IMG/VR virus record: IMGVR_UViG_2718218305_000006
Strand: one strand, 5' to 3'
DNA: 64,000 bases
Source of the DNA: a virus
Taxonomy: Duplodnaviria > Heunggongvirae > Uroviricota > Caudoviricetes
Shown here: in pieces, positions 1 through 51,710 of the stretch
How the letters are laid out: each line of letters begins with the position of its first letter
How positions within the stretch are numbered: the stretch's first letter is position 1
Made by a program: the position numbers and the translations under genes
The notes under the pieces: model-generated
Told to the model about the DNA's origin: nothing
The model's input: only the letters and a program-made list of their open reading frames with translations
The model's database searches: none

Positions 1-214
1 TTGCTGCGCTTTCTATACCAGGTAATTATGAAGTAATAGTTCTTGGGAATGGTGAGTTTATCGTAATGCCATTGCCATCTGATGTTATTCTGATCAGCAA
101 AGAATCGCATGCGGATTCGGTCAGTTACTTCAGCATTAAAAGAGACTAGATTATAATGCTGTAGTAAAGCCAGCCTGAACAACTGGCGTCTGTCGCACCA
201 TTACGAGGATAGTA

Positions 215-493
215 GTGGTGCATTACAAGAAACTTAACAATTCTGATAATTCAGCCGTCTTTGCCAGCAGGCACGGGCGGTGTTCTCATGCATTCAAATC
301 TGACTGGTTCCAGCATGACCCATGCACTGAAGAACAGGCCGAATGGCTGATTCAGTGCTACCGCAGACGTGGTTACGAGTTTCAGAAAGATCTCAGCTTC
401 GATCGTCGTCACTGGATAATCTCCGCCAGGCTCCCTTATTCCGAACGCCCACCGCGTCCGTCCCGCACATTCCAGCAGCGCATCTGGAGGTAA
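215..493 (+). CDS. hypothetical protein (92 aa) immediately upstream of DUF968 gene
   Basis: ORF ends ..QQRIWR overlapping the next start; same slot and similar C-terminal pattern as 41150..41422 (..RQRVWR) in prophage 2. Confidence 0.35.
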   Translation: MVHYKKLNNSDNSAVFASRHGRCSHAFKSDWFQHDPCTEEQAEWLIQCYRRRGYEFQKDLSFDRRHWIISARLPYSERPPRPSRTFQQRIWR

Positions 494-494
494 C

Positions 495-1559
495 GTGCGG
501 GTATTACTTCGACCTGTTCTGGTACCGGAACTCGGGCTGGTGATCGTTAAGCCGGGCCGTGAATCCATGCCGGTATTCCACAATACCCGGGTACTGGTGG
601 AGCCGGAACCGAAAAGCATGCGTAATCTGCCGTCCGGGGTCGTTCCTGCCGTTCGCCAGCCGCTGGCGGAGGATAAATCATTACTGCCATTTTTCAGCGA
701 CGAACGAGTGATTCGTGCTGCTGGTGGCGCTGGCGCATTGTCTGACTGGTTACTGCGCCATGTTAAATCCTGCCAGTGGCCACACGGTGATTATCACCAC
801 AGTGAAACCGTCATTCACCGTTATGGTACCGGCGCAATGGTGTTGTGCTGGCACTGCGACAACCAGCTGCGCGACCAGACCTCCGAATCACTGGAACATC
901 TGGCTCAACAAAACCTGGCAGCTTGGATGATTGACGTCATACGCCATGCAATGAATGGCTCGCAGGAGCGTGAATTATCTCTGGCTGAATTATCCTGGTG
1001 GGCGGTCCGCAATCAGGTGGCGGACGCGCTACCGGAAGCGGTATTACGTCGTTCGCTGGGGTTGCGTGCGGAAAAAATCCGCTCAATGTACCGTGAAAGC
1101 GACATCGTACCGGGAGAGCAGACCGCCACCGGCATACTGAAGCAGCGCACAAAAAATATTGCGCTACCGCCTCACGTCCACCAGCACCAGCAACAGAACC
1201 CACCACAGGAAAAGACGGTGGTCAGCATTGCCGTTGATCCGGAATCTCCGGCTCAGTATCTCCAGCGCCAGAAACCACAACGGGAAGAGATGCCTGTATA
1301 CACGCGCTGGGTAAAAACGCAGAAATGCATGACATGCGGTAATCAGGCAGATGATCCGCATCACATCATTGGTCATGGACTGGGAGGGATGGGAACAAAG
1401 GCTGATGATTTGTTTGTTATTCCGCTGTGCCGTAAATGCCATAGCGAACTACACGCCGGGGTAAAAGATTTTGAAGAAAAACACGGCAGCCAGCTGTTGT
1501 TGCTGATTCGTTTTTTAATGCACGCGAGAAATTCGGGTGTTCTGAAGTGGAAAGCATAA
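495..1559 (+). CDS. DUF968-family prophage protein (YdfU-like)
   Basis: 354-aa ORF with GTG start and Cys/His-rich C-terminus; sits upstream of rusA-Q; paralogue at 41370..42473. Confidence 0.65.
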   Translation: MRVLLRPVLVPELGLVIVKPGRESMPVFHNTRVLVEPEPKSMRNLPSGVVPAVRQPLAEDKSLLPFFSDERVIRAAGGAGALSDWLLRHVKSCQWPHGDYHHSETVIHRYGTGAMVLCWHCDNQLRDQTSESLEHLAQQNLAAWMIDVIRHAMNGSQERELSLAELSWWAVRNQVADALPEAVLRRSLGLRAEKIRSMYRESDIVPGEQTATGILKQRTKNIALPPHVHQHQQQNPPQEKTVVSIAVDPESPAQYLQRQKPQREEMPVYTRWVKTQKCMTCGNQADDPHHIIGHGLGGMGTKADDLFVIPLCRKCHSELHAGVKDFEEKHGSQLLLLIRFLMHARNSGVLKWKA

Positions 1560-1925
1560 ATGACTGAACGCATAGAATTTGTTTTGCCTTACCCGCCAAC
1601 GGTGAACACTTACTGGCGTCGTCGTGGCAGCACATATTTTGTATCAAAAGCCGGGGAGCGTTATCGCCGGGCAGTGGCGCTTATTGTTCGCCAGCAGCGG
1701 CTGAAATTAAGCCTGTCCGGAAGGTTGGCAATAAAAATTATTGCAGAACCACCGGATAAGCGCCGCCGTGACCTGGACAATATCCTGAAAGCACCACTGG
1801 ATGCGTTGACGCATGCCGGACTTCTCATAGACGACGAGCAGTTTGATGAAATCAATATTGTGCGCGGTCAGCTCGTTCCTGGTGGGCGGCTGGGCGTGAA
1901 GATTTACAAAATTGAGAGTGAGTGA
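1560..1925 (+). CDS. rusA: Holliday junction resolvase RusA
   Basis: 121-aa translation MTERIEFVLPYPPTVNTYWRRRG..DLDNILKAPLDALTHAGLLIDDEQ matches the RusA family; nin-region position. Confidence 0.85.
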   Translation: MTERIEFVLPYPPTVNTYWRRRGSTYFVSKAGERYRRAVALIVRQQRLKLSLSGRLAIKIIAEPPDKRRRDLDNILKAPLDALTHAGLLIDDEQFDEINIVRGQLVPGGRLGVKIYKIESE

Positions 1926-2488
1926 TCGTAAATATGATATACCCGGAAATTACAGGCAAAAGCGGCGAGCATTTACGTCTAAAAACGCTGGAAGCCGTCT
2001 GGATCCAGGGGAAATTACGGATGTGGGGGCGTTGGTCGTATATAGGTGGTAGCAAAACAGGAAATATGTTCAATCAGTTGCTGGCATCCAAAAAACTGAC
2101 AAAAACCGCAATCAATGAAGCCCTGCGTAGAATCAGGGAGTCAGGGATTGATAAACCAGAGCTGGAAGCATTCTTGCGAGAGATGATCGCTGGCAGACAG
2201 AAGAGCTGGTTGTCTCACTGTACTGATGCAGAGGCGTTACGCATTGATGGGGTGATAAGTAAAGCGCTTGCACGTTATCCTGGATTGATTTATATCCTGC
2301 GGCAAAGATACGAAGGGCGGGGGATGAGTAAACGCAAAATGGCTGAATTGTTGAATGAGGTTCACCCTGAGTGGTGTTACGCCACGTGCCGTAATCGCAT
2401 AGATGCGTGGTTGAAAATGGCAGAGTTTATGCTCTATCTGCCGATGCGTGATGCATTCTCTTCCGGGGATCTAAAAACCGTCTGTTGA
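1922..2488 (+). CDS. late-gene antiterminator Q-like protein
   Basis: 188-aa ORF overlapping the rusA stop (GTGA), directly followed by a sigma70-like promoter and terminator; N-terminus shared with 42842..43408. Confidence 0.7.
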   Translation: MIVNMIYPEITGKSGEHLRLKTLEAVWIQGKLRMWGRWSYIGGSKTGNMFNQLLASKKLTKTAINEALRRIRESGIDKPELEAFLREMIAGRQKSWLSHCTDAEALRIDGVISKALARYPGLIYILRQRYEGRGMSKRKMAELLNEVHPEWCYATCRNRIDAWLKMAEFMLYLPMRDAFSSGDLKTVC

Positions 2489-2514
2489 CTCAATCTGTTA
2501 TCCGGGGCTATATT
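2485..2514 (+). promoter_or_regulatory. candidate late promoter pR' (TTGACT-N17-CTATAT)
   Basis: -35 TTGACT overlaps the Q stop codon; 17-bp spacer; -10 CTATAT/TATATT. Confidence 0.45.
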
Positions 2515-2577
2515 CCTCACGCGCCAGCAAAATCTGGCGTCGGGATTAGCACCCCGGATGTTTACGGAGCGATATGA

Positions 2578-2597
2578 GACGCGCCCGCGTCTTTTTT
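2578..2597 (+). terminator. rho-independent terminator (tR'-like)
   Basis: GACGCG-CC-CGCGTC hairpin followed by TTTTTT, about 65 nt downstream of the candidate pR'. Confidence 0.5.
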
Positions 2598-2761
2598 CAT
2601 ATCGTTTGCACAGTCACATTCGCGATTTATGGCGGGCTGTGTGGGGGAGCCGAAAGGCTCGCCGGTTTCCGTACCCGGTAGTGCTAACCCCGCACAGTTC
2701 GCCACCACGATGATTAGCACCTGACGGTGGCGATAATGTCCAAATGTACGGAGTTATCGTT

Positions 2762-3319
2762 ATGACCACTCAGATTTCTGTCGAAACTCTTTCCCCAATT
2801 ACACACAACCAAATTCCCGTTATCACTACCGAGTTACTGGCACAGCTTTACTGTACCGAGATCAACAACATCAAAGTAAATTACACCCGTAATTCCGAGC
2901 GTTTTGTTGAGGGTAAACACTTTTTCAAGGTTGTTGGTGATGAGTTGAAAAATTTGCGGGTTACTTTAAGTAACTCACAAACGCCTGTTTCCCCCAAAAC
3001 CCGCTCCCTCATCCTCTGGACAGAACGAGGCGCAGCCCGTCACGCCAAAATGCTCGAAACCGATCAGGCGTGGGATGTGTTCGAAAAACTGGAAGACTGC
3101 TATTTCAGACAAAAGGATCCGTCAGCGCCAGCTTCATGCCAGAAAAGTTACGACACGCGAGTTCTCTGTTATCAGCGAGGCGGTGTCACTGTTTCCACAA
3201 TTCAGTTGCGGGATGATGATATTGTTATTTCCCTTGAGTCATGGCTGGAACTGGCGAGAGCCAATGGTTGGTTTGTTGTTCGCAGAGATAAACTGGTGGA
3301 AAGGCTGATGCAGCTTTAA
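2762..3319 (+). CDS. ORF6N-domain (antirepressor N-terminal-like) protein
   Basis: GGAG RBS 8 nt upstream of ATG; motifs NSERFVEGKHFF..LWTERGAARHAKML..AWDVFEKLEDCYF resemble the ORF6N/antirepressor N-domain. Confidence 0.5.
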   Translation: MTTQISVETLSPITHNQIPVITTELLAQLYCTEINNIKVNYTRNSERFVEGKHFFKVVGDELKNLRVTLSNSQTPVSPKTRSLILWTERGAARHAKMLETDQAWDVFEKLEDCYFRQKDPSAPASCQKSYDTRVLCYQRGGVTVSTIQLRDDDIVISLESWLELARANGWFVVRRDKLVERLMQL

Positions 3320-3477
3320 AAAAGTTCTTGCAATTTTAGCCATAAACTGCTTCAATTCCGGTACGCTTCGCAAAGCTGTATCGCGAGGCGAACCAAGCGC
3401 ATGAACTTTACCAGAACCCGCCATTGAGCGGGTTTTTTATTGCGGAATTAATTACGGACCGTTATTATTCTGCTCCC

Positions 3478-4032: not shown

Positions 4033-5979
4033 ATGACATTTAAACATTATGATGTTGTCAGGGCGGCGTCGCCGTCAGACCTTGCTGATGCACTTGCTCA
4101 AAAAATTCGTGAAGGATGGCAACCATACGGCGGGCCGTTTTCTTCGTATACGGATGATGGCGCAGCACTTATTCAGGCGATTGTCGCAGAAGGTGATGTG
4201 AGCACACCTGTTGTGGTGAAGCCGACAGGTGGAGAAGGTGCAGTAATCAGCGCCACCAGAGACCCGGAGTATTACTTTGTTGTGGTTCTGGCGGGGCAGT
4301 CAAACAGCATGGCATATGGTGAAGGCCTTCCGCTGCCGGAGACATATGACCGTCCGGACCCGCGTATTAAGCAGCTGGCGCGCCGCAGTACGGTGACACC
4401 GGGCGGTGCAGCATGCAAATATAACGACATCATTCCGGCGGACCATTGTCTGCATGATGTGCAGGACATGAGCCGCCTTAACCATCCGAAAGCGGACCTG
4501 TCAAAGGGGCAGTACGGTACCGTGGGGCAGGGGCTGCATATTGCCAAAAAACTGCTGCCGTTTATACCGGAGAATGCGGGCATTCTGCTGGTTCCGTGCT
4601 GTCGTGGTGGTTCAGCGTTCACCACCGGAGCTGATGGCACATACAGTGACGCGAGTGGTGCCTCGGAGAATTCAACCCGCTGGGGTGTGGACAAGCCGCT
4701 GTATAAGGACCTTATCGGTCGAACAAAAGCAGCACTGAAGAAGAACCCGAAAAATGTGCTGTTTGCCGTGGTGTGGATGCAGGGGGAATTTGATTTTGAC
4801 GGCACGCCCGGAAATCACGCAGCACAGTTTGGTGCGCTGGTTGATAAATTCCGTGCAGACCTGACGGATATGGCAGGTCAGTGCGTCGGTGGCTCTGCTG
4901 GCGGTGTTCCCTGGATATGTGGAGATACGACGTATTTCTGGAAGCAGAAGAACGAATCCACGTACCAGACGGTGTACGGCAGCTATAAAAACAAAACGGA
5001 AAAGAATATCCATTTCGTACCGTTCATGACCGATGAGAACGGGGTGAATGTGCCGACGAACAAACCGGAAGAAGACCCGGACATTCCGGGTATCGGATAT
5101 TACGGTTCGAAATGGCGTGACAGCTCAGCCACCTGGACGTCACAGGACAGGGCGAGCCATTTCAGCGCCTGGGCACGCCGTGGGATTATTTCCGACCGTC
5201 TGGCAACGGCGATTTTGCGCCATGCGGGAAGAGTGGCGCTAAACGCGGGGGCATCATCGACAGTATCAGAGGTGCGCCCGTCATCGCCTTCCGGTGCAGA
5301 AGCCACAGGCGTCACAACACTGCTCTCTTACCTTGCCAGCGAGTCAGAGGGAAGCCTGAAAGTACAGGGATGGTCAGCCAGTGGCGGCAGGGCAGAAGTG
5401 GTCAGCGATGCGGAGGGAACCGGAGGTAAGGCAGTGAAGCTGACCAAGGAAGCCGGTAAAAGCAGCTGGGTGCTGGAGTACGCCGCGGGCAACGGTGCGG
5501 CTCTGTTACAGAAAGGGGGGCAGATTCGCTGCCGCTTTAAGGTTTCGGGAGCGCTGGCTGCGAACCAGTATGTTATGGCGTTTTACTGGCCGGTATCTTC
5601 ACTGCCACAGGGCGTTGCCCTGACCGGAGACGGGGGGAATAACCTGCTGGCAGCGTTCTACATCCAGACAGATGCAAAAGACCTGAATGTGATGTACCAC
5701 AATGCGAAAGTAGCGACAAACAACCTGAAACTGGGAACCTTTGGCGCATTTGATAACGAATGGCATACGCTGGCTTTCCGCTTTGCCGGGAATAACAGCC
5801 TTCAGGTGACGCCGGTTATTGATGGTCAGGATGGCACACCGTTCACGCTGACGCAGTCACCGGTCAGTGCATTTGCGGCGGATAAACTGCATGTGACAGA
5901 CATTACCAGGAATGCGACTTACCCGGTGCTGATTGACAGCATTGCGGTGGAAGTGAACAACGCGGATGCCGCGGCATGA
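4033..5979 (+). CDS. nanS-p: prophage sialate O-acetylesterase NanS-p (DUF1737 + SGNH/SASA domain)
   Basis: 648 aa; GGAGG RBS; N-terminal MTFKHYDVVRAASPSDLA (DUF1737-like) and VVLAGQSNSMAYGEG SGNH block I; same slot as nanS-p downstream of stx in Stx phages. Confidence 0.8.
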   Translation: MTFKHYDVVRAASPSDLADALAQKIREGWQPYGGPFSSYTDDGAALIQAIVAEGDVSTPVVVKPTGGEGAVISATRDPEYYFVVVLAGQSNSMAYGEGLPLPETYDRPDPRIKQLARRSTVTPGGAACKYNDIIPADHCLHDVQDMSRLNHPKADLSKGQYGTVGQGLHIAKKLLPFIPENAGILLVPCCRGGSAFTTGADGTYSDASGASENSTRWGVDKPLYKDLIGRTKAALKKNPKNVLFAVVWMQGEFDFDGTPGNHAAQFGALVDKFRADLTDMAGQCVGGSAGGVPWICGDTTYFWKQKNESTYQTVYGSYKNKTEKNIHFVPFMTDENGVNVPTNKPEEDPDIPGIGYYGSKWRDSSATWTSQDRASHFSAWARRGIISDRLATAILRHAGRVALNAGASSTVSEVRPSSPSGAEATGVTTLLSYLASESEGSLKVQGWSASGGRAEVVSDAEGTGGKAVKLTKEAGKSSWVLEYAAGNGAALLQKGGQIRCRFKVSGALAANQYVMAFYWPVSSLPQGVALTGDGGNNLLAAFYIQTDAKDLNVMYHNAKVATNNLKLGTFGAFDNEWHTLAFRFAGNNSLQVTPVIDGQDGTPFTLTQSPVSAFAADKLHVTDITRNATYPVLIDSIAVEVNNADAAA

Positions 5980-7503: not shown

Positions 7504-8037
7504 ATGAACACCAAAATCAAATACGGCCTGTCGGCTGCCGTTCTGGCGCTGATTGCCGCTGGTGCGCCTGCGCCTGACATTCTCGACCAGTTTCTGGATG
7601 AAAAGGAAGGTAACCACACCACGGCATACCGTGATGGTGCGGGTATCTGGACCATCTGCCGAGGTGCCATCATGGTGGATGGTAAGCCTGTGATTCCTGG
7701 CATGAAGCTGTCGAAGGAAAAATGCGACCGGGTTAACGCCATTGAGCGTGATAAGGCGCTGGCATGGGTGGAGAAAAACATCAAAGTGCCACTGACCGAA
7801 CCCCAGAAAGCGGGTATTGCGTCATTCTGTCCTTACAACATTGGCCCAGGTAAGTGTTTCCCGTCGACGTTTTATAAACGAATTAATGCAGGTGATCGCA
7901 GGGGAGCGTGTGAGGCGATTCGCTGGTGGATTAAGGACGGTGGGCGTGATTGCCGCACACGTTCAAATAACTGCTACGGACAGGTTATTCGTCGTGACCA
8001 GGAAAGCGCATTAGCTTGTTGGGGGATAGATCAGTGA
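7504..8037 (+). CDS. R: SAR endolysin (lysozyme R)
   Basis: 177 aa; N-terminal signal-anchor-release segment [16 protein letters not shown] then lysozyme-like domain; near-identical to 48943..49476. Confidence 0.85.
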
Positions 8038-8501
8038 GAAGAGTAACCGCGATTATTTACGCTCTGGTTATCTGCATCATCGTCTGTCTGTTATGGGCTG
8101 TTAATCATTACCGCGATAACGCCATCACCTACAAAGCGCAGCGCGATAAAAAAGCCAGAGAGCTGGAACAGGCGAATGCCACCATTACTGACATGCAGGT
8201 GCGCCAGCGTGATGTTGCTGCGCTCGATGCAAAATACTCGAAGGAATTAGCCGATGCGAGAGCTGAAAATGAAACTCTGCGTGCTGATGTTGCCGCTGGT
8301 CGTAAGCGCCTGCGGATCAACGCCACCTGCCACGGTACCGTGCGTGAAGCCACCGGCACCTCCGGCGTGGATAATGCAACCGGCCCCCGACTGGCAGACA
8401 CCGCTGAACGGGATTATTTCATCCTCAGAGAACGGTTGATGATGATGCAGAAGCAGCTGGAAGGGGCGCAGGAATATATCCGCACTCAGTGTATTAACTA
8501 G
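8034..8501 (+). CDS. Rz: i-spanin Rz
   Basis: GTG start overlapping the R stop; N-terminal TM then coiled-coil; embedded Rz1 in +1 frame. Confidence 0.8.
8269..8439 (+). CDS. Rz1: o-spanin Rz1 (lipoprotein), embedded in Rz
   Basis: [15 protein letters not shown] lipobox followed by a Pro-rich segment, entirely inside Rz. Confidence 0.65.
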
Positions 8502-34673: not shown

Positions 34674-35312
34674 TTAAATATCTTGTTGAATTTTAAAGCA
34701 TACTCCCAATATGCAAGATAGATCATCCAGCATAATTGAAGGGTAGCGAGGATTCGTGGGGACTAAAAGAATATCCGGCCCTTCTATCTCCAGTTTGCGA
34801 ATGACAGGCGTTGTGGTCCCTTTGGGTAAGGCAAGGACAATATTTCCTGGTTGTACGATTCGATCGGGATCAACAAAAACTGTTGAACCATTTGGGATGG
34901 AAACTCCACCACCAGATGTCGACATACTGTCACTCTCTAGAACAACAGCAAAGGTATTGGCCGGGATTTCTCCGACAAGCTGCACACAAGAGGTTATTGA
35001 GGAATTTTTCATATAATCACTCCAGCTTGCTGCCTGCTGAAGTGATAGTAGCGGAACCGTTTTTATCGGCGGTAAAGATAGATCAAGCGAATCACCTGTA
35101 TTTAACTCTCCTCCATTAAGAAGCCAATTTTCGTTTACTTTCAATATCTTTGCCAGTGAACTTATGTAACGCGAGGACGGCGCTCCTCCACCGTTCATCC
35201 ATTGACTTACGGAGCCTTTTGATGCGCCAGTGGCATTGACAAGGTCTTTGCCTTTCAAGTTTAGCGCATGCATACGTTGGGTTATGCGTTCAGATATTGT
35301 TTGCTTGTTCAT
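34674..35312 (-). CDS. cI: CI-type repressor (HTH + S24 LexA-like peptidase domain)
   Basis: 212 aa; N-terminal HTH (..GASKGSVSQWMNG..) and C-terminal S24-like segment; divergent from cro-like gene. Confidence 0.85.
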   Translation of the reverse strand: MNKQTISERITQRMHALNLKGKDLVNATGASKGSVSQWMNGGGAPSSRYISSLAKILKVNENWLLNGGELNTGDSLDLSLPPIKTVPLLSLQQAASWSDYMKNSSITSCVQLVGEIPANTFAVVLESDSMSTSGGGVSIPNGSTVFVDPDRIVQPGNIVLALPKGTTTPVIRKLEIEGPDILLVPTNPRYPSIMLDDLSCILGVCFKIQQDI

Positions 35313-44973: not shown

Positions 44974-44997
44974 GGCTCGCTTCGGCGGGCCTTTTTT
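44974..44997 (+). terminator. rho-independent terminator after tRNA-Arg
   Basis: GGCTCGC-TTCG-GCGGGCC followed by TTTTTT. Confidence 0.55.
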
Positions 44998-45129
44998 GTA
45001 TCTGCGCCACGCCCGGCGCATACCAACCACAGAGCCTTTCGGGGGTGAGCTTACGGAGTGGTCAGTGTGACTTTCTCTGTGGGCAGATCGCTCCCGGGCG
45101 TTGGCTCACCCACCCAAAGGAACGTCACG

Positions 45130-45561
45130 ATGTTTGGAATCTTCAAAAAGAAAACCCGCAGAGCGGCAACGGAAATTAAAAAGTTTGAAAAACGCGATCT
45201 GGCACAGGTGGTGATTAACGCCGCATACCTGGTGGCCTGTGCAGATGGTGAATGTGAGGCATCCGAGAAAGCGAAGATCGAACAGGTACTGCGTAATCAG
45301 CCTGCGCTGTCCGCGTTTACGTCAGAAATTAATGCGATTAGCGCAACCATTATCGGTCAGCTGGATACGAACTTTAAAACTGGTCGTCGTGCGGCGTTAC
45401 GTGAGATTGAGGATGTGAAACACGATACGCGTGAAGCGGAAGATGTGCTGGATGTGGCGGTGGCCATTGCGGAGGCAGACGGCGAAATTGAGCCGGAAGA
45501 GCGCAAGGTGCTGGAAGAGATTGCCGGTGTTCTGGGTCTTCGTCTGGAGAATCACCTGTGA
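45130..45561 (+). CDS. TerB-like domain protein
   Basis: 143 aa from an internal ATG; paired ..ACADGECEASEKAKIEQVL.. and ..IAEADGEIEPEERKVLEEIAGVLGL.. motifs typical of TerB-like proteins. Confidence 0.5.
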   Translation: MFGIFKKKTRRAATEIKKFEKRDLAQVVINAAYLVACADGECEASEKAKIEQVLRNQPALSAFTSEINAISATIIGQLDTNFKTGRRAALREIEDVKHDTREAEDVLDVAVAIAEADGEIEPEERKVLEEIAGVLGLRLENHL

Positions 45562-45725
45562 CGGTAAAACTGCGCCTGGCTGTGGCTGCACTCCTGCTGT
45601 TTCTGGTGGTGATGGTGGATTTCACCAGCAGAATCATGTCGGTGCTGGCGGATGGGGTGCTGGTCTGCGGCATTGTGGTATTGCTGTGGCCGGTGATAAA
45701 AAGAAACAGCCTGCATAATGCTTGA
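45558..45725 (+). CDS. small membrane protein (55 aa), GTG start overlapping TerB-like stop
   Basis: VTVKLRLAVAALLLFLVVMVDF..VLVCGIVVLLWPV, two hydrophobic helices; below the ORF-track cutoff. Confidence 0.3.
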   Translation: MTVKLRLAVAALLLFLVVMVDFTSRIMSVLADGVLVCGIVVLLWPVIKRNSLHNA

Positions 45726-46038: not shown

Positions 46039-47889
46039 ATGTCGATTAAACATTATGATGTTGTCAGGGCGGCGTCGCCGTCAGACCTTGCGGAAAAGCT
46101 GACACACAAACTGAAAGAGGGCTGGCAGCCGTTTGGTAGTCCGGTGGCCATAACCCCTTATACCCTGATGCAGGCGATTACAGCAGAAGGTGATGTGGTG
46201 GTCAGTGGTGCAACTGAGCCGGATTGGTACTACGTCATCGTACTGGCCGGGCAGTCCAATGCCATGGCTTACGGTGAAGGGCTTCCGCTGCCGGATTCAT
46301 ACGATGCTCCGGATCCGCGCATTAAACAGCTGGCGCGCCGCAGTACAGTGACGCCGGGTGGGGCTGCCTGCAGATATAACGATATTATTCCGGCCGACCA
46401 CTGCCTGCATGATGTGCAGGATATGAGTACGCTGAATCATCCGAAGGCAGACCTGAGCAAAGGGCAGTACGGCTGTGTCGGCCAGGGGTTACATATTGCC
46501 AAAAAACTGCTCCCGTATATCCCGAATAACGCGGGGATCCTGCTGGTACCATGCTGTCGTGGTGGTTCGGCATTTACCCAGGGCGCGGAGGGGATATTCA
46601 GCGAGTCCACGGGGGCCAGCCAGGATTCGGCGCGCTGGGGTGTGGGTAAACCGTTATATCAGGACCTGATTGCGCGCACCAAAGCTGCATTACAGAAGAA
46701 CCCGAAAAATGTGTTGCTGGCGGTGTGCTGGATGCAGGGAGAGTTTGACATGAGCGCCGCCACCCACGCACAGCAACCTGCGCTGTTTACAGCCATGCTG
46801 ACACAGTTTCGTGCTGACCTCTCCGTGTTTAACGCGCAGTGCCATGGTGGCAGTGCTGCAGATGTGCCGTGGATTTGTGGTGACACGACGTATTACTGGA
46901 AAAATACATACGCTACCCAGTACGACACCGTGTACGGCGGGTATAAAAACAGGGAGAGTGAGGGCGTTTATTTTGTGCCCTTCATGACAGACGGTAACGG
47001 CGTCAATACCGCCACTAACGCGCCGGCAGAAGATCCGGATATTCCGGCATCAGGATATTACGGTGCGGCATCGAGAACGAATGGAAACCAGGTATCATCA
47101 AACCGCCCGACACATTTCAGTTCATGGGCGCGCAGGAGCATTATTCCGGATCGTCTGGCAACCGCTATTCTGAACGCAGCCGGGCGCACCTCAGCCTTCA
47201 TCAGTGGTAAGGCACCGGAAATCAAACCCTCGCCCGGCGGCAACACGCCATCGGGTCCGTCTGCAGATACGTCCGTTCGCACAATCTCCCTGCTGCCGGC
47301 AGCCGGAGAGGCTGCTGCGCAGGGCTGGAGCATTAAGGATGGCGGAATTCAGTTGTCAGATGGTGTATTTAAGATCACCAGGCAGAGCAATAAAACCTGG
47401 TCCCTGACGCATCCGGTGGATGACGCAATTACCCTGCTGACACAGGGCGGCAGACTGACCTGTAAGTTCCGCCTGTCAGGCGCACTGACCAACAATCAGT
47501 TCGGGCTGGGGATTTATCTGTATACGGACGCTCCCGTTCCTGATGGTGTGGCGATGACGGGTACCGGTAATCCGTTCCTGATGTCGTACTTCACTCAGAC
47601 CACTGACGGCAGAGTGAATCTGATGCATCACAGGAAAGCCGGAAACACGAAGCTGGGGGAGTTCGGCGATTACGGTAACGACTGGCAGACGCTGGAGCTG
47701 GTGTTCACCGCCGGCAGTGCCACGGTTACTCCGAAACTGAATGGAGTGGCTGGCCCGGCATTCCAGGTTATAAAAGACAGTCTGACACTGGGACTGAATG
47801 CGCTGACGCTGACGGATGTTACAAAAAATGCAGCGTATGGCGTTGAGATAGAAAGTCTGATGCTGGAGATAAATGCACCGGCAGCATAA
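46039..47889 (+). CDS. nanS-p: prophage sialate O-acetylesterase NanS-p paralogue
   Basis: 616 aa; MSIKHYDVVRAASPSDLA.. and VIVLAGQSNAMAYGEG; catalytic domain highly similar to 4033..5979, C-terminal domain diverged. Confidence 0.8.
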   Translation: MSIKHYDVVRAASPSDLAEKLTHKLKEGWQPFGSPVAITPYTLMQAITAEGDVVVSGATEPDWYYVIVLAGQSNAMAYGEGLPLPDSYDAPDPRIKQLARRSTVTPGGAACRYNDIIPADHCLHDVQDMSTLNHPKADLSKGQYGCVGQGLHIAKKLLPYIPNNAGILLVPCCRGGSAFTQGAEGIFSESTGASQDSARWGVGKPLYQDLIARTKAALQKNPKNVLLAVCWMQGEFDMSAATHAQQPALFTAMLTQFRADLSVFNAQCHGGSAADVPWICGDTTYYWKNTYATQYDTVYGGYKNRESEGVYFVPFMTDGNGVNTATNAPAEDPDIPASGYYGAASRTNGNQVSSNRPTHFSSWARRSIIPDRLATAILNAAGRTSAFISGKAPEIKPSPGGNTPSGPSADTSVRTISLLPAAGEAAAQGWSIKDGGIQLSDGVFKITRQSNKTWSLTHPVDDAITLLTQGGRLTCKFRLSGALTNNQFGLGIYLYTDAPVPDGVAMTGTGNPFLMSYFTQTTDGRVNLMHHRKAGNTKLGEFGDYGNDWQTLELVFTAGSATVTPKLNGVAGPAFQVIKDSLTLGLNALTLTDVTKNAAYGVEIESLMLEINAPAA

Positions 47890-48336
47890 TAAAAAAAGCC
47901 AGCGACTGACCTGAAAAAGAAGACGCTGGCTAAAAGGCCTTATATGTTTGTAGAGACTTATTTTTCACAGACAGCAATGATGCCTGTCAATATATTATCA
48001 ATATGCGGATTGTTTCAGTTACAGATGCTTTATTAAGGAAAAAAACAGCCAGCACTGACTTTCGGTGGAGAGGTGCTGGCTCAAAAGGATAGATGTACTT
48101 CACATGTTGCTTCTATATGGCAGTACATTTTCTGACAGACAGTGACGGATGTTGTCAAGATATTGTGTCATTTATAACCTGAATCGGGGGAGGCCGGAAT
48201 GTTATCTGGCATTTTTAGCAGAGCCTGAATGCCATAATCACGGCTCCCGGCGTTGGCCGTCAGTGGGTGACACTGGCGGCTTTTTTGTTTTCCTTTACTT
48301 TCATTTTCTGTCGGCGGTGACGGAGACATACATCAG

Positions 48337-48543
48337 ATGGAAAAAATCACAACGGGTGTGTCATACACCACGTCAGCGGTGGGGACGGGATACTGGTTAC
48401 TGCAGCTGCTGGACAAAGTCTCTCCGTCCCAGTGGGTGGCGATAGGCGTGCTGGGGAGTCTGCTGTTTGGGCTGCTGACATATCTGACGAACCTGTATTT
48501 CAAGATTAAAGAAGACCGGCGTAAGGCGGCGCGGGGAGAGTAA
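48337..48543 (+). CDS. S: class II holin (S-like), single start
   Basis: 68 aa MEKITTG..; the upstream in-frame Met codon seen in copy 1 is ATA here. Confidence 0.85.
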
Positions 48544-48547
48544 AGTG

Positions 48548-48892
48548 ATGAAGAAAAAATACGAACTGGTTGTTAAAGGGATAAATAATTACCCGGATAA
48601 GATTACTGTTACTGTGGCACTGGAAATTGGTGGGTATCCGTCACTGTTGTTGCCAGATGTGGCGATTAGTCTTGACCGTACTGAAGGTGCCACGCTGGAG
48701 TTTTACGAAGCTGAGGCGAAAAAGCAGGCGAAGCAGTTTTTCATGGATGTTGCTGCCGGGTTATGTGAAGGGGATGGTCCGTTACCGGAAAAGCGTCCCG
48801 TAATTTTAGAGGCGCAGGATGTGTTGATAACCTACAGAGGAAAACTACCGGGAATAATTACGGGTTCTCTGAAGACTCCACCGCTGGCCTGA
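48548..48892 (+). CDS. hypothetical protein inserted between holin and endolysin
   Basis: 114 aa, unrelated to the copy-1 insert at the same slot; no family recognised. Confidence 0.45.
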   Translation: MKKKYELVVKGINNYPDKITVTVALEIGGYPSLLLPDVAISLDRTEGATLEFYEAEAKKQAKQFFMDVAAGLCEGDGPLPEKRPVILEAQDVLITYRGKLPGIITGSLKTPPLA

Positions 48893-48942
48893 AGACTTAA
48901 CATATCCAGGGATTTGAAATCGATAAACCCTGATAAATATCC

Positions 48943-49476
48943 ATGAACGCAAAAATCAGATACGGCCTGTCGGCTGCCGTTCTGGCGCTGATTGGTGCAG
49001 GGGCGTCTGCGCCTGAAATCCTCGACCAGTTTCTGGATGAAAAGGAAGGTAACCACACCACAGCATACCGTGATGGTGCGGGTATCTGGACCATCTGCCG
49101 TGGAGCCACCCGGGTGGATGGTAAGCCTGTTATTCCTGGCATGAAGCTGTCGAAGGAAAAATGCGACCGGGTTAACGCCATTGAGCGTGATAAGGCGCTG
49201 GCATGGGTGGAGAAAAACATCAGAGTGCCACTGACCGAACCCCAGAAAGCGGGGATTGCGTCATTCTGTCCGTACAACATTGGCCCCGGTAAGTGTTTCC
49301 CGTCGACGTTTTACAGACGGATTAATGCAGGAGATCGAAAAGGTGCCTGCGAAGCTATTCGCTGGTGGATTAAGGACGGTGGCAGGGACTGCCGTATTCG
49401 CTCAAATAACTGTTACGGTCAGGTATCCCGTCGTGACCAGGAGAGCGCGCTGGCGTGCTGGGGAATCGACAGATAA
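48943..49476 (+). CDS. R: SAR endolysin (lysozyme R)
   Basis: 177 aa, near-identical to 7504..8037. Confidence 0.85.
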   Translation: MNAKIRYGLSAAVLALIGAGASAPEILDQFLDEKEGNHTTAYRDGAGIWTICRGATRVDGKPVIPGMKLSKEKCDRVNAIERDKALAWVEKNIRVPLTEPQKAGIASFCPYNIGPGKCFPSTFYRRINAGDRKGACEAIRWWIKDGGRDCRIRSNNCYGQVSRRDQESALACWGIDR

Positions 49477-49746
49477 GCAGAATATTTTGCTGAAAAATGC
49501 GGTTTGCTTACATGGACGGATAACACGAAATCCTGCAAATTGGCAAAATGTAAGTGAATAAAGTCAAAACAGTTGTTTAACACTCAGGCACCGTAATGAT
49601 GCCTTTGTCATTTCTGCGCATCTCACGCGCATCTCACAACACAGAACCTTTCAGGATGACCCTTGAGGATACCGGTTTGGCTGTCGGTGCCTTTCTGTGG
49701 GCTGGATTCCTGTGAGACAAGGTTCATCACTAAAAGGAAATAACCG

Positions 49747-50316
49747 ATGAATATGATGGCCGTGCCGTTTCACGGCAACTCTCTTTATGTAGTTAACCAT
49801 AATGGCGAACCATACGTTCCCATGAAACCTGTCGTTGCGGGGATGGGGCTGGCCTGGCAATCACAGTTGGCTAAGTTAAGACAGCGTTTTGCGTCAACTA
49901 TAACGGAAATCGTTATGGTTGCTGAGGATGGGAAACAACGCAATATGGTGTCCATGCCACTTCGAAAACTTGCCGGCTGGCTACAAACCATTAATCCCAA
50001 CAAAGTAAAACCCGAAATCCGCGATAAGGTCATCCGGTATCAGGAAGAGTGCGACGATGTTCTTTACGAGTACTGGACGAAGGGTTTTGTCGTTAATCCC
50101 CGTAAAATGAGCGTGATGGAAGAACTCAACCAGGCTTGTGCTGACATGAAACGGGATAAAAACATTGCCAGTGTGTTTGCTACCGGGCTGAATGAGTGGA
50201 AACAGGTTAAAGCCGCGCATGTATCAAAAATCCGTACGCTGGTAAATGAAGCGAATATGCTGATTGATTTTGTCCTGGCTGATACAGGCAAAGGGAAAAT
50301 AACAAAGGCGGATTGA
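49747..50316 (+). CDS. phage antirepressor-like protein (AntA/P22 AR N-terminal type)
   Basis: ..VPFHGNSLYVVNHNGEPYVPMKPVVAGMGLAWQSQLAKL.. antirepressor N-domain pattern; inserted between R and Rz. Confidence 0.6.
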   Translation: MNMMAVPFHGNSLYVVNHNGEPYVPMKPVVAGMGLAWQSQLAKLRQRFASTITEIVMVAEDGKQRNMVSMPLRKLAGWLQTINPNKVKPEIRDKVIRYQEECDDVLYEYWTKGFVVNPRKMSVMEELNQACADMKRDKNIASVFATGLNEWKQVKAAHVSKIRTLVNEANMLIDFVLADTGKGKITKAD

Positions 50317-50462
50317 TGGGGTGGCTAATGATATCAGATAAACTCATAACGCTGGTGAAGAGCCTCTGTGTACTTGTCGGCATTTCATTTTCACTAATGC
50401 TGGTTGCTCTTTTTCTTTCCATGGCCTGGATGGCGTTGACTTCGGCAGGGCTGGTGGGGTGA
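50316..50462 (+). CDS. small membrane protein (48 aa)
   Basis: ATG overlaps the antirepressor stop (TGATG) and its stop overlaps the Rz GTG; MGWLMISDKLITLVKSLCVLVGISFSLMLVALFLSMAWMALTSAGLVG. Confidence 0.25.
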   Translation: MGWLMISDKLITLVKSLCVLVGISFSLMLVALFLSMAWMALTSAGLVG

Positions 50463-50932
50463 GCATAAACCGAATGCTTTCCGCGTTTACCGTTATTCTG
50501 CTGGTGGTCTGTGGTGCGCTTAGTCTGGGGCTGAATCATTACCGCGATAACGCCATAACCTACAAAGAGCAGCGCGATAAAAAAGTCAGTGAGCTGGAGC
50601 TGGCAAATGCAACCATTACTGATATGCAGCAGCGCCAGCGTGATGTTGCTGCACTTGATGCCAGATACTCGAGGGAATTAGCTGATGCGAGAGCTGAAAA
50701 TGAAACTCTGCGTGCTGATGTTGCCGCTGGTCGTAAGCGCCTGCGCATCAACGCCAACTGTCCAGGCTCCTTGCGTAAAGCCCCCATCACCTCCGGCGTG
50801 GATAATGCAACCGGTCCCCGACTGGCAGAAGCCGCTGAACGGGATTATTTCATCCTCAGAGAACGGCTGATGGCAATGCAGAAGCAACTGGAAGGAGCAC
50901 AGGAATATATCCGTACCCAGTGTATACCGTGA
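50459..50932 (+). CDS. Rz: i-spanin Rz
   Basis: 157 aa, homologous to 8034..8501. Confidence 0.8.
   Translation: MSINRMLSAFTVILLVVCGALSLGLNHYRDNAITYKEQRDKKVSELELANATITDMQQRQRDVAALDARYSRELADARAENETLRADVAAGRKRLRINANCPGSLRKAPITSGVDNATGPRLAEAAERDYFILRERLMAMQKQLEGAQEYIRTQCIP
50700..50870 (+). CDS. Rz1: o-spanin Rz1, embedded in Rz
   Basis: [15 protein letters not shown] lipobox, embedded in the +1 frame. Confidence 0.65.
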   Translation: MKLCVLMLPLVVSACASTPTVQAPCVKPPSPPAWIMQPVPDWQKPLNGIISSSENG

Positions 50933-51395
50933 TGTTTTGTTACGAAGGTGTTACCGGTAACGTTAAGGTAATTTAACAAAGAGTCAGTTCCGGACTTTAT
51001 AGTGTGCTCAGTTCATGGCCAAAAACGATTTCTGTGATAAATATTTTGAATATTATTTACAGGTAAATGGAGTGGGGCACATGGATAGAAATATTACAAT
51101 AGAGTATGAAGTATATGCCCGTATTGTATGGGCAGAGAAGGCAAAAACATGGTAATTCCGTGTGTTGCCATGATACCTGACTGGCAGAATTGTTGTTTGG
51201 TTTTGAGTATATAGTCAGCGTCTTTTGTTCGGTAATTGCTCTTTCAATTAAAATGCCAGATATGATTTGCTTTTCTTTGTTGTTTAGTTTTTTTGTATAT
51301 TATTTTTATTGTTTTTATATAATTAGTTTTTTATTGTTGTCTTATTAAGGACGGTAAATTCAGGATGGCAGTCTGTAGATAAACGGAGGTTACTT

Positions 51396-51710
51396 ATGCT
51401 ACATGATCACCTGGCAGAATGTCTGGAGAAAAAAGGACTGTACCGGAGAGCAGCTGAACGATGGGCAAAAGTGATGGTACAGCTAAGTGATGACCAGAAA
51501 AGAAAAGTGGCGGCACAGAAACGAGCAGAGTGTTTGCGTAAGGCGCGCCGGACTCCGGTTTCACCGGTGAACCTGACCGAAATAAAACAAGCGGTCAACA
51601 GACTACATTCTGAGTTGGGAATGGGATTTGAAGAGCGGCGGGTATTCCGACGATATAAAGGGACAGGAGAACAGAATACGTCCGGAAACGCGCGGTCAAA
51701 AAAATGCTAA
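51396..51710 (+). CDS. PerC-family transcriptional activator (Pch-like)
   Basis: 104 aa, ..LAECLEKKGLYRRAAERWAKVM.. resembles PerC/Pch; preceded by a very AT-rich tract. Confidence 0.55.
   Translation: MLHDHLAECLEKKGLYRRAAERWAKVMVQLSDDQKRKVAAQKRAECLRKARRTPVSPVNLTEIKQAVNRLHSELGMGFEERRVFRRYKGTGEQNTSGNARSKKC

Follow-up and report, generated by a model that had tools for sequence, protein, structure and literature searches.

In the Shiga toxin (Stx) phages 933W, VT1-Sakai, VT2-Sakai and BP-4795, an ant gene and a small open reading frame (ORF) lie between the endolysin gene R and the spanin genes Rz/Rz1, and a gap of 270 nt separates R from ant. Here we describe a locus of this kind in the IMG/VR virus record IMGVR_UViG_2718218305_000006 (Duplodnaviria; Heunggongvirae; Uroviricota; Caudoviricetes), of which a stretch of 64,000 nt (hereafter, the window) holding two prophages in tandem was analysed. 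The locus is situated in prophage 2 and consists of ant (49747..50316, + strand), a small membrane ORF (50316..50462, +) and, directly 5' of ant, a leader of approximately 135 nt (49616..49746, +) whose predicted pseudoknotted RNA structure recurs in front of several late genes across Enterobacterales prophages.

Other described systems that bear on this locus are the antirepressor of P22, the Rha proteins, the morons of lambdoid phages, and phage regulators under RNA control. P22 ant lies in the late region, in immI, and is controlled by Mnt, Arc, and sar RNA, whereas the window ant is preceded by a cis-acting structured leader; the two products have the domain P22_AR_N in common, but the 300-aa P22 Ant continues with P22_AR_C and the window Ant with ORF11CD3. 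Rha of P22 and phi80, a Bro-network protein, has in common with the window Ant an ORF11CD3-type C-terminal segment, a place in the late operon beside the lysis genes and, in P22 and Stx-type phages, the same leader RNA on the 5' side; it differs in its N-terminal domain (Phage_pRha, not P22_AR_N) and in that its gene follows Rz and does not occupy the R-Rz slot. Lambdoid morons are extra late-operon genes, classically with a promoter and terminator of their own. Like morons, the locus is extra DNA between conserved late genes and the cargo of its slot is interchangeable (a KilAC gene occupies it in Stx1a_99E13); unlike morons, it shows no promoter-like site in a scan confined to the sigma-70 consensus, and its terminator-like hairpin stands upstream of ant, not downstream. 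RNA control of phage regulators is known from the lambda N leader with RNase III, the alternative structures of lambda cIII, the c4 RNA of phages P1 and P7 acting on icd-ant, and P22 sar. As in those systems, structure around the ribosome-binding site would set the translation of a potentially dangerous regulator; the present leader differs from them in having no sequence or Rfam relationship to any of them, in containing two pseudoknots, and in being common to unrelated downstream genes.

Comparison with 933W, VT1-Sakai, VT2-Sakai, and BP-4795 revealed no material difference in gene order or gap length, and the window Ant is 100% identical to the annotated ant products of all four (ST933Wp46 in 933W, ORF49 in BP-4795). 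In contrast to these Stx phages, prophage 2 has no stx genes between its tRNAs and its NanS-p-like esterase gene. The arrangement of ant and small ORF is already known, having been annotated in Shiga-toxin phages since 1999; far from being particular to this tandem polylysogen, it is how 933W-like and Sakai-like phages are ordinarily laid out. The ant locus occurs in 386 phage records, and 1847 of 5426 complete E. coli genomes contain it, 692 of them at full length and single genomes at up to 11 places. Taken alone, ant and the small ORF are textbook content of an Stx-phage lysis cassette and nothing new. The order of the module is terminator-like hairpin, pseudoknotted leader, ant, small membrane gene, and variant Rz N-terminal anchor. 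We consider it probable that the locus represents the usual "ant" cargo module carried by lambdoid phages of the 933W/Sakai type, including a mechanism by which expression of a late regulator is gated. The item worth following is the double-pseudoknotted leader, common to Bro-network late genes across Enterobacterales prophages and found in the model phage P22.

The gap 5' of ant is approximately 170 nt long in every other genus examined and 270 nt in the window; the ~135 nt at its 3' end can be aligned between genera and show evident compensatory changes, and the window leader is recovered by our covariance model (R1) at 105 bits (E=3e-17). The structure comprises the P1 hairpin (49616-49630) and the helices P2 (49655-49665 with 49718-49728) and P3 (49666-49675 with 49702-49711), all three of which were predicted by RNAalifold, with 17 of 23 pairs compensated. 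In the model-fitted alignment, 95.2% of cells were paired (30-48% in slid controls) and compensatory double changes occurred in 19 of the 23 nested pairs, values that none of 500 shuffles reached, although covariation counted on an alignment fitted to a model leans towards the structure of that model. Two long-range pairings, first seen by eye, were assessed by comparing duplex energies within lineages to those between 16 lineages, with permutation. PK1, in which the P1 loop (49621-49626) pairs with the bulge between P3 and P2 (49712-49717), gave -8.2 versus -2.5 kcal/mol (0 of 10000 permutations), and PK2, in which the 5' flank (49640-49646) pairs with the apical loop (49693-49699), gave -10.8 versus -6.6 kcal/mol (0 of 10000). 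An alternative proximal hairpin, P4 (49671-49688), is formed when the 5' strand of P3 pairs with a proximal copy of its partner (2 of 10000 permutations; P4 is absent in Thorsellia). P3 and P4 are mutually exclusive, which suggests that the leader is a possible switch. At the base of the long hairpin, CCUUU (49647-49651), an anti-Shine-Dalgarno (anti-SD) segment, pairs with AAAGG of the ribosome-binding site (SD AAAGGA, 49733-49738) in most minimum free energy folds.

On this comparative evidence we judge the leader structure very likely to be real. It combines covarying structure, location on the sense strand, and a position immediately 5' of a start codon, as a cis-regulatory element does. 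Searches of Rfam 15 gave no match at E<=1 in window positions 47800-51500, and in five other leader-bearing loci gave tRNA matches only. The window leader also contains a direct repeat of the P1 segment GCGCATCTCAC (49616-49637), so that the PK1 partner GTGAGA (49712-49717) could pair with either copy. The anti-small RNAs AgvB and AsxR were considered as the same element and rejected, being 51-60-nt small RNAs encoded 3' of a moron coding sequence downstream of PR'.

The covariance model identified 29 copies of the leader in 85 sources and 31 in 24 viral contigs. Copies are present in many Enterobacterales prophages, including those of the Shiga-toxin phages 933W and BP-4795, and the genes behind them encode Ant, Rha (Phage_pRha + ORF11CD3), KilA-N, KilAC, and TerB-like proteins as well as one unknown product. 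A DNA-level feature, such as a recombination linker, a module boundary, or a protein operator, might also be conserved at such positions: the sequence is located where mosaic modules meet and stands in front of several interchangeable genes, and lambdoid phages are known to share boundary sequences. We regard this explanation as highly improbable, given that all 60 matches (E<0.01) lie on the coding strand and that all 18 copies inspected, including a second one in the window, end exactly at the ATG start codon. Moreover, 19 of 23 nested pairs show compensatory double changes, many of the G-U pairs would be C-A on the other strand, and the two long-range pairings change in sequence yet stay complementary across lineages.

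The second copy in the window belongs to the same prophage as the first (44995-45135, +; R1 55.8 bits, E=8e-8), and its PK1 and PK2 strands are complementary within the copy. It follows a tRNA-Arg gene and a terminator-like hairpin (44974-44991) and extends as far as the ATG with which a TerB-family gene (45130-45561) starts; after this comes a DUF3927 gene (45558-45725), both genes being assigned through Pfam. The same pairing of leader and TerB-family gene was observed in Salmonella (locus L012, 1318-1466) and in another E. coli phage contig (L148, 2056-2196). In Stx1a_99E13, a second leader copy (L008, 2135-2281) follows Rz and precedes a Rha-family gene. In the 59 loci searched, no leader copy was detected with the long P22-like Ant homologues. 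Prophage 1 encodes a Bro-network protein of its own (2744-3319; ORF6N, E=3e-20) upstream of a NanS-p-like esterase, and a model search with default filters found no leader copy at this gene.

In P22, a leader copy of 78.7 bits lies between gene 15 (Rz) and rha/orf201 (L178, 2000-2150, corresponding to LC730322.1, 39499-39649). Because this copy ends at an ATG (2145) and the classical GTG start of orf201 (2076) falls inside the RNA element, the real P22 Rha may be a protein of 178 aa. A passage of PMC4936722 describes rha as a late-operon gene that is detrimental in hosts deficient in integration host factor (IHF) and that is said to be regulated by IHF. If the leader mediates this, it would explain the decades-old IHF regulation of P22/phi80 rha. 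In our tentative estimate, the chance falls just short of even that the leader represents an undescribed class (no Rfam 15 match) of pseudoknotted cis-regulatory RNA of lambdoid and P22-like phages, that is, a portable cassette of terminator and leader which gates the translation of Ant, Rha, KilA-N, KilAC, and TerB-like late accessory regulators in response to a ligand, IHF, or RNase III.

Directly 5' of the leader, a terminator-like hairpin can be read from the sequence (GGCACC..GATGCC followed by a T-rich run, 49587..49615, +), and a G+C hairpin with U-run likewise precedes 17 of the 18 leader copies inspected in other loci. A sigma-70 consensus scan detected no promoter-like site in the gap between R and ant (49477-49746, 270 nt), with an overall promoter count below shuffled expectation, and a consensus scan detected no terminator-like site after the small ORF. 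Since the scan showed no promoter-like site there and the hairpin would stop polymerase without Q, we infer that the module would be transcribed only within the Q-antiterminated late transcript. Translation of ant would then be held off by the leader helix in which CCUUU pairs with AAAGG of the ribosome-binding site, until some input opens the leader through refolding or processing. This opening could come about through the alternative proximal hairpin, through cutting of the long stem by RNase III, or by way of a ligand or a host factor (IHF, for example). Ant expression consequently looks gated, and not passive, because ant is preceded by both a conserved SD-pairing leader and a terminator-like hairpin. 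The first-pass annotation had proposed simple expression from the late operon. Its placement of ant agrees with the position inside the late lysis cassette and with the gap lacking a sigma-70-like promoter, but the proposal is too simple in that the hairpin and the SD-pairing leader intervene.

Certain observations weigh against such gating. The window hairpin (49587-49603) has one mismatch and a poor U-run and may terminate weakly; variants of the hairpin without the mismatch occur in 06-3462 and P14437. The promoter scan is a crude sigma-70 consensus search that misses weak or non-sigma-70 promoters, and expression in the lysogen is therefore possible. The probability of SD pairing (0.77, compared with 0.65 in shuffled controls) discriminates weakly, and the stability of single leader sequences is not exceptional (z=-0.6 and -0.06). 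As folding energy is unexceptional, support for the leader structure comes from covariation. Finally, no published experiment on the R-Rz ant was found in the literature searched. Were the leader to gate translation, it would offer a handle on when Bro-network late regulators are made and on the manner in which IHF controls rha, and would constitute a real control point for whether the Ant of Stx phages is ever made; it would also bear on whether Ant can act on neighbouring prophages in O157 polylysogens, and hence on Stx-phage induction.

The protein behind the leader (ATG start, 189 aa) contains P22_AR_N (PF10547, aa 5-113, E=1.4e-45) and ORF11CD3 (aa 122-164, E=5.5e-6) in a Pfam scan, and matches PHROG 524 ("anti-repressor Ant") with E=2.4e-112 over positions 7-210 of 317. 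NCBIfam and PADLOC gave no match for either Ant or the small ORF product, and a sequence search of solved structures with Ant returned spurious matches only. A database search yielded 2580 homologues, of which the best 120 all share the two-domain form, at 151-212 aa, and come from Escherichia, Salmonella, Photorhabdus, Xenorhabdus, Serratia, Proteus, Providencia, Sodalis, Arsenophonus, and Hamiltonella, and an alignment of 17 family members has 55 invariant columns. The two-domain form of 151-212 aa is a conserved Enterobacterales family and not a truncated P22 Ant. An AlphaFold model predicts a KilA-N/APSES-like fold of DNA-binding type for the N-terminal domain, although its confidence is medium (mean predicted local distance difference test score 69) and the C-terminal domain is poorly defined, a further point to be set against our interpretation. 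With a KilA-N/APSES-like N-terminal fold and a swappable C-terminal module, Ant is a member of the domain-shuffling Bro/KilA-N/Rha/Ant network, having its N-terminal domain in common with P22 Ant and the helical ORF11CD3 with Rha.

Relatives of 175-188 aa adjoin non-homologous lysis genes in the late regions of other genera: the Salmonella relative follows a GH108 endolysin gene, that of Hamiltonella follows a lysozyme gene and is succeeded by a KilA-N gene and Rz, and that of Photorhabdus follows Rz. In Stx1a_99E13 (L008, 708-1403), a gene for a 231-aa KilAC protein (PF03374) fills the R-Rz slot behind the same leader in place of ant, and PhiR12_5 and phiSTEC1589 have no ant between R and Rz. 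The R-Rz slot is a cargo site for Bro-network genes.

The first-pass annotation had called the gene antirepressor-like, a description borne out by the P22_AR_N domain and by 50% identity to P22 Ant residues 10-136. Only this N-terminal domain aligns, and of the AntA and KilAC (PF03374) domains which had been suggested for checking, a Pfam scan found neither in Ant. P22 Ant itself is composed of P22_AR_N and P22_AR_C (E=7.2e-31 by the same scan method); the Pfam scan found no match to P22_AR_C (PF10548) in the window Ant, which has ORF11CD3 in its place. The homology backs a relationship to Ant and not the binding of repressors, and common ancestry is no proof of repressor binding because the modelled N-terminal domain has a fold of DNA-binding type. 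It may be that the half of P22 Ant that contacts the repressor is the half missing here. The "ant" of Phi24B (Fogg et al., PMC3064807) was considered as the same gene and rejected, as that paper places it on the upstream side of the qut site and aligns it with the C-terminal portion of P22 Ant. Comparative papers on Stx phages list Ant phams without discussing the R-Rz gene.

Ant could nevertheless be a true late antirepressor of CI-type repressors, whether of co-resident heteroimmune prophages or its own residual repressor, in which case it would induce neighbours or make lysis irreversible. Such a role would fit the resemblance to P22 Ant, whose antirepressor activity is proven, whose gene is also found in the late region, in immI, and whose N-terminal 126 residues are matched at 50% identity, as well as the finding that trans-acting antirepressors coordinate prophage induction in Salmonella polylysogens (PMC3121763). 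The combination of hairpin and SD-pairing leader would amount to the multi-layer silencing expected for a gene dangerous to lysogeny, and O157 genomes have up to 11 matching places each. We nonetheless find this explanation unlikely. The gene lacks P22_AR_C, and the domain it has in common with P22 Ant is modelled with a DNA-binding-type fold. Rha, KilA-N, KilAC, and TerB-like genes, none of them a known antirepressor gene, make use of the same leader and slot. Prophage 2 encodes a repressor (34674-35309, minus strand; HTH_3 + Peptidase_S24) of the self-cleaving type, as indicated by its Peptidase_S24 domain, and therefore needs no antirepressor, and Ant is identical in many co-resident prophages, so that its specificity would have to be broad. 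The gated reading would instead make Ant a regulator of the late phase, kept at a tight dose and binding either DNA or another regulator, in the functional class of P22/phi80 Rha, and within this class the inactivation of a CI-type repressor would be one possibility. Among specific roles for ant, late regulation of the Rha kind, directed at some other DNA or protein, comes closest to an even chance in our estimation, inactivation of CI-type repressors is rather doubtful, a part in lysis timing is improbable, and absence of any function more improbable still.

The small ORF (ATG start, 48 aa; 49 aa if translated from TTG 50313) shares one base with the ant stop codon (TGA, 50314-50316; TGATG), and its own stop overlaps the Rz-frame GTG at 50459 (GTGA). 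It matches PHROG 4906, a family of unassigned function, with E=3.9e-28. Together with the matches of ant to Pfam P22_AR_N (E=1.4e-45) and PHROG 524 (E=2.4e-112), this argues that neither ant nor the small ORF is a chance ORF. The small ORF is open in 276 phage records and its family comprises 88 protein clusters, whose named sources are only E. coli or Stx phages; BP-4795 (ORF50) and RefSeq list it as hypothetical, and the window version is a sequence variant, 81-85% identical to those of named Stx phages. The conserved core, of 44 aa, opens with M(I)SDKLITL at the in-frame ATG 50328, so that this codon is a plausible alternative start. The first-pass annotation had presented the ORF as a membrane ORF, and its conservation across phages and strong predicted transmembrane helix agree with that view: the grand average of hydropathy is 1.67, the best 19-residue window scores 2.57 (aa 16-35), all charges lie within the N-terminal 15 residues, and the predicted topology is a single transmembrane helix at approximately aa 16-35 with a charged N-terminus. 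The ratio of nonsynonymous to synonymous substitution rates (dN/dS) was 0.27-0.50 in 11 of 12 pairs with dS>0.3 and 0.34 in the twelfth, although, to the detriment of our reading, the ratios are noisy and exceed 1 (up to 1.7) for near-identical pairs.

In three contexts without a P22_AR_N ant (L006, L007, and L008), the small ORF is kept directly 5' of the same variant Rz N-terminus. On sequence grounds, it is probably a genuine gene for a single-pass membrane protein, associated with the spanin end of the module, and the function of its product would be tied to that spanin/lysis end and not to ant. The notion that the ORF is the frameshifted C-terminus of a longer Ant was rejected, as homologues in other genera that are of the same length class (174-195 aa), and that have different small ORFs or none downstream, end at the same point as the 189-aa form, and it is further ruled out by the persistence of the small ORF without ant. 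In loci that lack ant or carry a different gene in its place, a further short hydrophobic ORF (45-71 aa) was observed directly upstream of the small ORF (L006 1283-1498, L007 1352-1495, L008 1358-1495; example sequence ...WKFLLVWLIPFLWVVARLITAIKR), which has no family match.

The module might accordingly be a lysis accessory, with the small membrane protein, perhaps together with Ant, tuning lysis timing or the function of the spanins or the signal-anchor-release (SAR) endolysin. The small ORF is invariably found next to Rz, varies in step with one particular Rz N-terminal anchor, and persists where ant has been lost or exchanged; it overlaps its neighbours at both its start and its stop codon, its product is strongly hydrophobic and single-pass, and the 933W record carries for ant the note "possible regulation of host cell lysis". 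Against this, no match to a holin, antiholin, releasin, or spanin family was found in Pfam, NCBIfam, or PADLOC, PHROG 4906 being the sole family match, and all members with a named source are from E. coli or Stx phages. The prophage 1 cassette has R and Rz adjacent and dispenses with the module, and Ant is a soluble protein with a fold of nucleic-acid-binding type which, in Photorhabdus, is encoded after Rz, outside the cassette. We therefore view a lysis-accessory nature of the module as possible but less likely than the gated cargo module, and an accessory lysis or spanin role for the small ORF itself as similarly doubtful.

Decay is the remaining explanation, according to which ant and the small ORF are remnants without current function. 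Ant is shorter than P22 Ant, some phages have no ant at the R-Rz site, and Stx1_14744 has lost the small-ORF stop codon. Decay is contradicted by the retention, in many genera, of a two-domain protein (151-212 aa, 55 invariant columns), by the intact ORFs in hundreds of phages, and by the conservation of the dedicated leader itself, and we assign it a very low probability. The Stx1_14744 ORF (L009, 1501-1737) runs to 78 aa and overlaps Rz, and may be a natural variant or a sequencing error.

The cargo module is embedded in a cassette for which Pfam matches were obtained for pinholin, SAR endolysin, and both components of a two-component spanin, with Rz1 nested in Rz. These are a class II holin of the P21 S type (48337..48543, +; Phage_holin_2_1, E=7.3e-33), the endolysin R, a lysozyme with a hydrophobic SAR-type N-terminus (48943..49476, +; Phage_lysozyme, E=1.5e-24), the i-spanin Rz (50459..50932, +; Phage_lysis, E=1.3e-46), which starts at GTG 50459 or at ATG 50474, the RefSeq choice, and the o-spanin lipoprotein Rz1 (50685..50870, +; Rz1, E=4.1e-19). 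Endolysins of this kind from Stx phages are termed SAR endolysins in PMC8136144. A DUF1327 gene, assigned to the YdfR family in RefSeq, lies between holin and endolysin (48545..48892, +; DUF1327, E=1.8e-46).

The ORF list and the sequence confirmed the first-pass description of a 189-aa ORF and an overlapping 48-aa hydrophobic ORF between R and Rz in prophage 2. Its account of prophage 1 was equally accurate: R lies at 7504-8037, the Rz GTG overlaps the R stop, and neither ant nor the small ORF is present. Pairwise alignment of the prophages further upheld the claim that the ant region is DNA additional to prophage 1, with approximately 1.06 kb in prophage 2 standing where prophage 1 has approximately 85 bp. 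The replaced stretch extends from the R stop into Rz, and homology resumes near 50535 at AATCATTACCGCGAT. Because the difference between the prophages reaches into Rz, to approximately 50535, the variable module takes in the N-terminal membrane anchor of this protein. The anchors of the two prophages are unrelated (50459-50535 versus 8034-8120) and the remainder of Rz is ~90% identical, with the mosaic joint inside this spanin gene at the NHYRDN motif.

Outside the cassette, an esterase of the NanS-p-like type (SASA/DUF1737/DUF6645) is encoded in both prophages (46039-47889 and 4033-5979); Stx phages carry it downstream of stx. Just downstream of the lysis cassette lies a gene for a PerC-family activator (51396-51710; Pfam PerC, E=5.4e-44), and PerC/Pch homologues on O157 prophages regulate the locus of enterocyte effacement (LEE), a virulence island.

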